Source: Patescibacteria group bacterium
GTDB taxonomy: Bacteria > Patescibacteriota > Minisyncoccia > Phycocordibacterales > PALSA-1337
NCBI GenBank assembly: GCA_028865095.1
Contig: JAGWLA010000003.1
Coordinates: 23,243 to 87,242 of the forward strand
Reading direction: 5' to 3'
DNA: 64,000 nt
A program made the position numbers and the translations under genes. Of this stretch, positions 25,979 through 27,308 are shown piece by piece (within the stretch, counting starts at the first letter, position 1; each line of letters starts with the position of its first letter). The notes under the pieces are model-generated. The model searched no databases, was not told where the DNA came from, and saw only the letters and a list, made by a program, of their open reading frames with translations.

Positions 25979-26547
25979 TGTTCACACCACCGAGTCCGAA
26001 AGCGGGCGCGGTGGTTTTTCTTAAAAATATTTCGGGTAAAAGAAAACCGCCCAATTTGCTCCGCAGTCTGCATCTTTACCGAACTGCAGAATATGTATCC
26101 ATTGATCAGGCTGAGTATGGAAAGGATGGGGGGTTAGTGTTCTTGCCTCGTTAGGGATCGATAAAAAGAGCCCGTGACTGGATGTCCGGGCTCAGGGCAA
26201 TCGGACTCGCTTCGGAGCGAGCTTGGTCATACGGCACAAGTATCTACACGTGAACGTTAGCTATCCGTACACGCTAGAAAAATTGACAGAACATGTGCTT
26301 GGCATTTTAACACCCAACCCCCTAATTTCATCGAATAGGTGTCAACCGTGTCCGATCTTTCGAGAATCACGCCCGTCCTACGCATCCTGACGGGAAGCAC
26401 GATTGCCTAACAGAAACATTAGCACCATGCTCGTAAAAGTCAATCATCATCTTGGGATTTGTCTCCATATACTCAAAAAATACCTAGATTTCAAGGTATG
26501 ATTCTACAGGCTCCGGAGGCTGGATTCGAACCAGCGACCAATCGCTT

Positions 26548-27116
26548 ACGTGTATCCCACTGTTGCCAATGGGGACGGACTATATCATTCCCATGTCCGC
26601 TTTAGGCAGATTTAGGGAAGAGGCGCTTCCAGCCCGACTCGATGTCGGGATGTACTCCTAGAAAAGGATAGTCTCTACACCTTCCCCGATATGCATCGGG
26701 GCTTGGCTCGGTATTATCCGCTGGGACGCGGACTTCACCGAATTCACCTCTTTTACAACCAGGCTTTCACCTGGAAGCTGCGTTATACCCGATTCGACTT
26801 CTCTATGGCAATTGGCACAAAGGAGGATGCATTTGCCGAGCTCCACACGGACCTCGTCCCACGAGCGAGCGTATCCACGATCGCCGATGCCGAATCTTTT
26901 GCTGGCGCTATCGATGTGGTGGAGCTCTAATGCGCCTGCGCATTTGCAGTAACCGCATATCTGGCATTTACCTCCTTTGTATTCAATGGCCATGCGCTTG
27001 ATCTTCCGCCGTCTTTTAGAGACTGCGATGATCAATGCTTCACGTCGATCGGCGTATGTTCTTCTGTCTGGCATTGCGTTCAATTGTACCATCCAGAAGA
27101 CGTCCACAGGCGACCG
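26548..27116 (-). mobile_element. Group I intron (tRNA anticodon-loop type) carrying an HNH homing-endonuclease ORF
   Basis: The 5' exon ends in U and the intron ends in G. The group I R element is seen as gtagAGACTAtcc and the S element as aATGATATAGTCCg (P7 strands) near the 3' end. An HNH ORF is embedded. Confidence 0.7.
26658..27107 (-). CDS. HNH homing endonuclease (intron-encoded)
   Basis: 'CQICGYCKCAGALELHHIDSA...CILLCANCH' is an HNH motif with a Cys4 zinc knuckle. Codon usage is AT-rich. The true start may be the internal MAIEYKGGK. Confidence 0.75.
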   Translation of the reverse strand: MDVFWMVQLNAMPDRRTYADRREALIIAVSKRRRKIKRMAIEYKGGKCQICGYCKCAGALELHHIDSASKRFGIGDRGYARSWDEVRVELGKCILLCANCHREVESGITQLPGESLVVKEVNSVKSASQRIIPSQAPMHIGEGVETILF

Positions 27117-27308
27117 CTCTACCGCTGAGCTACTCCGGAATATGATCTTTCAATGACCGAACAGTGGAAAATGTAGCATATGGCAAGGTCGAAATCAAAA
27201 CGGAAGGCCGGCGCCCGCGGCCGGACGCACCGCTCGCGGCATGCCGGGCGTACATATGGGCGACGCCGTATGGGTCTGTTATAATCAGCTCGTTAACCGC
27301 ATACCACC

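Follow-up and report, generated by a model that had tools for sequence, protein, structure and literature searches.

The closest described relatives of the element treated here, a group I intron with an HNH endonuclease gene inside the tRNA-Asn(GUU) gene of a Patescibacteria genome, were reported by Nakagawa et al. (mSystems 2026, PMC13011429; preprint July 2025, 10.1101/2025.07.03.662931), who surveyed 95 complete Patescibacteria genomes. Group I introns between tRNA positions 35 and 36 (the 35/36 site) were present in 15 tRNA-Asn(GUU) and three tRNA-Asp genes, and four tRNA-Asn introns longer than 500 bp encoded HNH endonucleases of family PF01844 (PMC13011429). The tRNA-Asn introns at 35/36 were assigned to subgroup IA by subgroup covariance models, a homologous tRNA-Asn intron (GCA_016700035.1) spliced itself precisely in vitro unless its omega-G was mutated to C, and the sequenced spliced products confirmed the 35/36 site (PMC13011429). 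The same authors described how ARAGORN and tFind mislabel the split tRNA-Asn as tRNA-Thr through a shift of 2 nucleotides (nt) (PMC13011429), and they credit the tFind survey of Williams 2020 (10.1101/2020.01.27.920355) with having catalogued the type earlier as 'Asn.4Ug'.

Here we analyse a stretch of 64,000 nt from contig JAGWLA010000003.1 (assembly GCA_028865095.1, positions 23,243 to 87,242 of the forward strand), referred to throughout as the window, whose own numbering is used for all its coordinates. An earlier note on this DNA had proposed that a tRNA-Asn(GUU) gene is interrupted at 35/36 by a group I intron encoding an HNH-type endonuclease and that the insertion site might be new. 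The first proposal was borne out by the Rfam match, by ARAGORN, by covariation among homologues and by the HNH family, and we are highly confident that the window carries an intact, mobile-type subgroup IA group I intron at the 35/36 site of a tRNA-Asn(GUU) gene from the Patescibacteria. The second is outdated, since host gene, site, subgroup, endonuclease family and phylum match the class of Nakagawa et al.; the tRNA-Asn 35/36 intron with an HNH gene is already known, and the window copy is an ordinary member of a published, tested class. Also shared with that class are the anticodon, the U before the 5' splice site and the terminal omega-G, the P7.1 and P7.2 helices and the failure or mislabelling by tRNA finders, while the window differs in its GC-rich (60.5%) genome and in a longer tail of its open reading frame (ORF), neither being a difference of kind.

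Other described systems resemble the locus in part. The cyanobacterial tRNA-fMet intron with I-Ssp6803I is likewise a bacterial anticodon-loop group I intron with a homing-endonuclease gene, but it occupies site 33/34 and its endonuclease is of the PD-(D/E)XK type, not HNH (PMC13011429). Subgroup IC makes up 81% of bacterial tRNA introns (PMC13011429). The classic introns without an ORF (Anabaena and plastid tRNA-Leu(UAA), Azoarcus tRNA-Ile, Agrobacterium tRNA-Arg) also self-splice from the anticodon loop and use anticodon-loop bases in P1, whereas they belong to subgroup IC (those in tRNA-Leu, tRNA-Ile and tRNA-Arg to type IC3), measure about 200-250 nt, lack P7.1 and P7.2, and sit at 34/35, 36/37 or other sites. 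The introns of T4, which we take to be of subgroup IA as well, have an endonuclease gene in a peripheral loop with its 3' end entering the structured core, but their hosts are protein-coding genes and their ORFs have Shine-Dalgarno sequences and phage late or middle promoters. The T4 endonuclease is expressed from an intron-internal promoter, and a hairpin masks its translation initiation on read-through transcripts (PMC2988022). The tRNA-Asn intron may follow this precedent, and differs from it in lacking a Shine-Dalgarno sequence and in what would be, as far as can be read from sequence, a sigma-70-type extended -10 element and a leaderless mRNA. HNH genes of the same family, with 45-61% identity over 92-99% of the query, lie between the tRNA genes of phage tRNA clusters ('HNH endonuclease 2' of BCU4, ORF44 of Felix O1; compare SegB in the tRNA region of T4); these differ in standing outside introns, in having an intron-less neighbouring tRNA-Asn in nearly all cases, and in belonging to phages that infect hosts of many phyla.

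The interrupted tRNA-Asn gene

The split gene lies on the minus strand, as do all intron features given below. Sequence reading and ARAGORN, both in its intron mode and on the joined exons, place the 5' exon at 27106..27139 (34 nt, tRNA positions 1-35, UCCGGAGUAGCUCAGCGGUAGAGCGGUCGCCUGU), ending in CCUGU, and the 3' exon at 26511..26548 (38 nt, positions 36-73, UAAGCGAUUGGUCGCUGGUUCGAAUCCAGCCUCCGGAG), starting with UAAGCG and carrying the discriminator G at 26511 with no CCA encoded. Between them lies the group I intron (26549..27105), 557 nt long, whose first bases are GGACG and whose last are ACACG, the final one being the omega-G at 26549; its limits follow from Rfam model RF00028, the boundary rule given below and covariation. 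When joined, the exons form a 72-nt cloverleaf that ARAGORN calls tRNA-Asn(gtt), and with introns allowed the same program reports the genomic locus as Asn(gtt) i(35,557). The exon coordinates in the earlier note, 27150-27117 and 26547-26510, have to be replaced by those above, as the sequence joined from them is no tRNA to ARAGORN, and its intron length of 569 nt is likewise superseded. The sequence features it had quoted are all present within 26510-27150, among them the anticodon loop CUGUUAA, interrupted after CUGU, the discriminator G, the exon-final U and the intron-final G.

The split gene was missed by ARAGORN in default mode and by the Rfam tRNA model, and a tRNA scan of the 64-kb window found no other tRNA-Asn. 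Because both default searches skip the split gene, the genome would seem to lack tRNA-Asn, and routine annotation would list the contig without it, which is the completeness artefact of which Nakagawa et al. warn. The tRNA-Leu(UAA) of the window (17554-17643) is free of an intron, as had been noted before.

Secondary structure and subgroup of the intron

The intron matches RF00028 with 56.3 bits (gathering score 50, E = 1.3e-11, full length of the model, positions 1-253, at 26806-26556), and with a score above the gathering score a chance match can be dismissed. A fold comprising P2, P3, P4, P5, P6, P6a, P7, P7.1, P7.2, P8, P8a, P9.0 and P9 was drawn by hand on the window sequence, and its pairs were counted on an alignment of 63 homologous introns, with the crossing helices P3 and P7 written as a pseudoknot and with pairing partners slid by 1-3 columns as the control. 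Standard pairs occupied 92.7% of the 3988 cells (67 pairs in 63 introns), compared with 37-46% after sliding, compensatory changes on both sides were seen in 54 of the 67 pairs, and none of 500 shuffles reached the observed fold measures. At each of the 80 columns with a conservation of 90% or more the window copy carries the consensus base, and all pairs drawn in it are canonical, so it shows no sign of decay.

The helices of the core are supported individually. P2 (26759..26774) is a hairpin of 6 bp with a GAAA loop, paired in 97.4% of cells with compensatory changes in 6/6 pairs, and is followed by the 5' strand of P3 (26745..26751), which pairs with 26625-26619 (3' strand 26619..26625; 94.7% paired, 3/7 compensatory). 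The P4-P5 domain (26708..26741) consists of P4 (26741-26736 with 26713-26708; 98.7% paired, 5/6 compensatory) and the P5 hairpin (26732-26717; 81.6% paired), and P6 with P6a (26679..26707) reach 98.4% and 93.5%. P7 is formed, as the earlier note had stated, by the R element AGACUA and the S element AUGAUAUAGUCC, with GACUA (26669..26673) on the 5' strand and UAGUC (26578..26582) on the 3' strand; the helix is invariant and 100% paired in the 63 sequences. Between P7 and the 3' strand of P3 stand P7.1 (26668-26656) and P7.2 (26649-26633; both within 26633..26668), paired in 97.1% and 86.0% of cells, and these are followed by P8 and P8a (26589..26618; 95.2% and 83.8%); all pairs of these four helices show compensatory changes. 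At the 3' end (26550..26576), P9.0 brings GU 26576-26575 together with AC 26551-26550 beside the omega-G and is paired in 100% of sequences through six pair combinations, and it encloses the P9 hairpin (26573-26556, GCAA loop; 88.3%).

P1 was located through conservation and covariation. Its 5' strand (27105..27109) is made of exon CUGU and the first intron base G, with the splice-site U (27106) in a U-G wobble, and is complementary to the internal guide sequence CGCAG (26778..26782), which forms the 3' strand. The guide lies inside a GCAGC block that is invariant in 63/63 introns, extended to GCAGCUU in most, and situated just after the HNH domain. The first intron nucleotide and the base preceding GCAG vary in concert (G-C in 43 introns, A-U in 13, G-U in one, a mismatch in six). 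As exon CUGU pairs with GCAG as P1, about 320 nt including the ORF form the P1 loop. Two other candidate guide sequences within the ORF, GCAGGCG near 26940 and ACAG at intron nt 38-41, were rejected, being not conserved in the homologues, whereas GCAGC is invariant and covarying.

The extra helices P7.1 and P7.2 are the defining feature of subgroup IA in the Michel-Westhof classification. The intron is assigned to subgroup IA on the basis of these helices and of agreement with the published assignment. A type IC3 intron like that of Azoarcus had first been suggested by the sequence of P4-P6 and J6/7 (AAUUCGG..., GCCAAG and GUAGAGACUA, which we take to resemble Azoarcus in P4-P6 and J6/7-P7), and this reading was dropped because P7.1 and P7.2 are present and covarying.

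The HNH endonuclease gene

The ORF list gives a frame of 149 amino acids (aa) at 26658-27107, with a GTG start that spans the 5' splice site. The earlier note had taken this frame as the HNH gene; the family holds, the GTG start does not. The ORFs of the homologues begin between intron nt 28 and 35, where the window has ATG 27074, and its gene most likely starts at this ATG and runs to the TAG at 26660-26658 (26658..27074, 138 aa), in the P1 loop. Most homologues encode 104 aa and end in P2, their stop codon lying 19 nt beyond the point where the guide sequence begins. The last 40 or so codons of the window ORF cross the 3' strand of P1, P2-P6a and P7 and enter P7.1; the C-terminal tails across the family differ in both length and sequence.

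The first 100 or so residues are strongly conserved (ORF identity 54-78%). They include an HNH/zinc-finger core of the form CxxC...HH...N...CxxCH (residues 37-93 of the 138 aa, 26796..26966), in which C37, C40, H52, H53, C86, N88, C89 and H90 are invariant or at least 90% conserved; all are kept in the window copy. PF01844 is matched by 26 of 29 close homologues at E <= 0.01 (best 3.8e-8), and a family profile searched against the PDB found the HNH domain of a group II intron maturase (6me0, E = 0.0024) and McrA (6ghc). The ORF is intact in 58 of the 63 introns. In the remaining five (L040, L047, L059, L069 and L071) the ribozyme core is kept and the ORF is truncated or broken (21-79 aa), as would be expected if endonuclease genes decay after fixation.

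Homologous introns and gene order

The ORF protein was used to scan a single genome of each species. This gave 87 relatives, almost all from Patescibacteria metagenome-assembled genomes (MAGs), of which 80 loci with 44-76% identity were fetched; the closest protein in these species-representative genomes is at most 76% identical to the window product. In 62 loci and the window, tRNA-Asn(GUU) is split at 35/36 by an intron of 515-624 nt, with CUGU before it, a terminal G and UAA after it, the rule used to set the boundaries itself requiring the terminal G.

The gene order priA-def-fmt-hpf-tRNA-Asn is common to the window and to seven of these loci (L001, L002, L004, L009, L021, L028 and L032; 50-63% aa identity), which come from MAGs named Paceibacterota, Parcubacteria or 'Saccharibacteria'. 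This shared order places the window, indirectly, in the Patescibacteria, and its conservation in at least seven other Patescibacteria loci marks the intron-bearing tRNA as native. The GC content of the window is unusually high for the phylum; the flanks of related loci average 42%.

In the published survey, endonuclease-bearing IA introns at 35/36 were found only in Patescibacteria (PMC13011429). Introns with an HNH ORF in tRNA-Asn were also seen in MAGs labelled Elusimicrobiota, Omnitrophota, Ignavibacteriaceae, Gamma- or Deltaproteobacteria and Firmicutes (L050, L055, L057, L058, L064, L066, L069, L070, L071, L077 and L078), labels that may reflect mis-binning or loose naming.

A block of low GC content (22,450-26,510; 47.6% against 60.5% for the window) extends from the ORF at 21875-22363 to the 3' end of the tRNA gene. 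Encoded in it are a helicase of 685 aa with four 'integrase repeat unit' domains (22466-24523, minus strand) and a second sigma-70 factor of 437 aa (24665-25978, plus strand); a more native-looking sigma factor is encoded outside it at 20488-21357. No integrase was found in the block, and a search for the mark that an integrated island would leave, a directly repeated tRNA 3' end, came back empty. Of the ORFs that follow the tRNA in 13 related loci, none has a match in the window. The earlier note had made the intron the border of a low-GC island. The block does end at the tRNA gene, but the intron is not part of it, given that in relatives the intron and its tRNA keep their synteny with the genes upstream and the block has none; it is probably acquired DNA that adjoins the tRNA and is separate from the intron. 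Further dips in GC content (49-56%) occur at 40000-41000, 48000-50000 and 56000-58000.

A promoter-like motif upstream of the ORF

A motif resembling an extended -10 element, TGgTACAAT (27083..27091), stands in the P1 loop, separated by 8 nt from the ATG that follows, and is conserved in the homologues. At 6-9 nt before the conserved ATG, 36 of 58 introns have a perfect TATAAT hexamer and 12 more have one that matches at five of six positions; composition-matched shuffles gave a mean of 1.2 and a maximum of 6 perfect hexamers, and control positions within the same ORFs had one in 0.4% of cases. The TG of an extended -10 element is carried by 33 of the 58 introns. With the commonest gap between hexamer and ATG, 6 nt, transcription would start on the A of the ATG, and no Shine-Dalgarno sequence was found at the ORF start. 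The endonuclease gene most likely has its own extended -10 promoter within the intron and a leaderless or near-leaderless mRNA. The TAT of the hexamer, together with the three bases before it, can pair with the ATG and the second codon.

Free-standing and phage-borne relatives of the endonuclease gene

The HNH gene also occurs outside introns. In six loci (L042, L062, L063, L067, L072 and L074; at 3010-3667 in L042 and 2989-3606 in L062) it stands directly upstream of a tRNA-Asn with a short ORF-less intron at 35/36, 200-234 nt long except for 397 nt in L063. Other arrangements are convergent (L068), downstream (L073, 2629-3291) and downstream in degraded form (L076). A neighbour-joining tree places eight free-standing copies in one clade with 58 intron-borne copies, to which they are up to 80% identical. 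This series looks like steps between an endonuclease gene that is free-standing and one that is intron-borne, and tRNA-Asn introns regarded as 'endonuclease-less' might be mobilised in trans by free-standing HNH genes.

The family is widespread in phages, with at least 544 relatives on viral contigs (IMG/VR) and 383 GenBank phage records. All 80 viral loci that were fetched (L081-L160) are phage tRNA arrays, and the tRNA nearest to the HNH gene is tRNA-Asn in 51 of the 80, at a median gap of 18 nt, where tRNA-Asn makes up 10.7% of the tRNAs. The copy of Bacillus phage BCU4 (L161) lies 75 nt downstream of tRNA-Asn, and that of Felix O1 (L162) between tRNA-Lys and tRNA-Ile. Two viral loci (L099, 869-1149, and L122, 3490-3758) have a tRNA-Asn called by ARAGORN with an intron of 194-206 nt beside the HNH gene, in L099 with the core motifs of P7; these may be phage-borne copies of the tRNA-Asn intron. 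Relatives of 157-161 aa with an additional Cys-rich N-terminal part were observed in the tRNA arrays of a Calothrix MAG (L079, 2203-2688) and a Pyrinomonadaceae MAG (L080, 2752-3303), of which one overlaps a tRNA-Asn that lies on the opposite strand and has no intron, and the other overlaps the start of a tRNA-Cys.

Proposed mechanism

On the proposed pathway the pre-tRNA would be transcribed through the intron, and CUGU with the first intron base would pair with CGCAG about 320 nt downstream as P1, leaving the splice-site U in its U-G wobble. Once the P2-P9 core had folded, free guanosine would attack the 5' splice site after U35, the omega-G, positioned by P9.0, would enter the G-binding site, and the exons would be ligated into the 72-nt tRNA-Asn, which needs CCA addition because none is encoded. 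Splicing of the window copy is predicted in this way from its intact fold and from the in vitro splicing of the homologous intron. On read-through pre-tRNA, the start codon of the endonuclease gene would pair with the upstream TAT segment and its three preceding bases. By analogy with intron-borne homing endonucleases, the HNH protein would cleave tRNA-Asn genes that lack the intron, close to the anticodon region, and repair from an intron-bearing copy would spread the intron; we infer both the activity and the target of the window protein from this analogy, with the intron-less tRNA-Asn gene GGTCGCCTGTTAAGCGATTGG as the putative substrate.

Weighing of the interpretations

Several observations weigh against an intact, mobile-type IA intron in the window. 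A convincing P10 pairing with the 3' exon could not be drawn, and the count of tRNA-Asn genes covers the 64-kb window only, with an intron-less copy possible elsewhere in the genome. The ORF has no stop in P2 and runs 121 nt further into P7.1, which adds an unusual tail of 34 aa, and because this tail enters the ribozyme core, folding could be disturbed by translation. Against PF01844 the window protein reaches 19.4 bits in its 149-aa form and 16.7 bits in its 138-aa form, below the cut-off of 21.4. The tail and the low score would also suit an intron that still splices while its HNH ORF no longer acts as a homing endonuclease, being a decaying remnant or serving another role, for example as a folding helper, with the intron inherited vertically only. 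The ORFs broken in five of the 63 introns fit such a history, as does the intron GC content, which tracks that of the host across homologues (r = 0.86), as for long residence. Even so, every invariant catalytic and zinc-binding residue is kept in the window copy, the 58 intact ORFs have a mean identity of about 71% in hosts whose flanking GC content ranges from 29% to 59%, and the promoter-like motif upstream is conserved as well, which leads us to regard an inactive endonuclease as unlikely, although worth serious consideration.

The identity and the origin of the tRNA gene leave far less room for doubt. ARAGORN in intron mode labels about 25 homologous loci Thr(tgt) i(33), the behaviour already reported for ARAGORN and tFind (PMC13011429), and such labels would describe a tRNA-Thr gene with an intron at 33/34 and boundaries shifted by 2 nt. 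An intron shifted in this way would end in A and not in G in the window, ARAGORN itself calls the window locus Asn i(35), covariation in P1 fixes the 5' boundary and covariation in P9.0 the 3' boundary at 35/36, and the sequenced spliced products confirm this site (PMC13011429); we give the tRNA-Thr reading practically no credence. We also consider it very improbable that the tRNA gene is dead, a pseudogene bordering a low-GC island which was acquired horizontally and brought the intron with it. The 47.6% GC block does abut the 3' end of the tRNA, carries the integrase-repeat helicase and the second sigma-70 factor and lacks synteny with relatives, and the intron, at 52% GC, lies below the window mean; against this stand the conserved order from priA to the intron-bearing tRNA-Asn in at least seven other Patescibacteria loci, exons and a ribozyme core free of defects, the lack of a direct repeat of the tRNA 3' end and of an integrase in the block, and the lack of a second tRNA-Asn in the window. 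We retain the intact, mobile-type IA intron in a native tRNA-Asn as the preferred reading.

A broader proposal concerns the expression and history of the endonuclease gene. It holds that the gene is no passive passenger of the pre-tRNA, that a conserved promoter starts transcription on, or 1-2 nt before, the ATG, that the start codon is masked on the read-through precursor, and that one HNH lineage moves between three states, free-standing beside intron-less tRNA-Asn genes in phage tRNA arrays, free-standing directly before or after bacterial tRNA-Asn genes with the ORF-less intron, and inside the P1 loop. We put this forward tentatively, rating it as a real possibility that falls somewhat short of an even chance. 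Telling against the promoter and the start-codon pairing, which belong to the preferred reading as well, are the window hexamer TACAAT, which matches at five of six positions and has a gap of 8 nt in place of 6, a promoter scan requiring a -35 element, which did not flag the intron-internal -10 motif, and the weak covariation of the start-codon hairpin, with 65-77% pairing at variable positions.

Implications

The -10 motif, the place of the ORF within the fold and the free-standing relatives are not discussed for this intron class by Nakagawa et al. (PMC13011429). What goes beyond the literature is accordingly the mapping of the ORF to the P1 loop, the promoter-like motif and the ties of phage-borne and free-standing HNH genes to tRNA-Asn; otherwise the window adds one GC-rich example. 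The free-standing and phage-borne copies bear on how tRNA introns gain endonuclease genes and spread. The published conclusion that the tRNA introns of Patescibacteria have limited mobility was based on most of them lacking endonuclease genes. If the movement of the HNH lineage between three states and mobilisation in trans are true, this conclusion would need revising, and phages would be a plausible source or vector.

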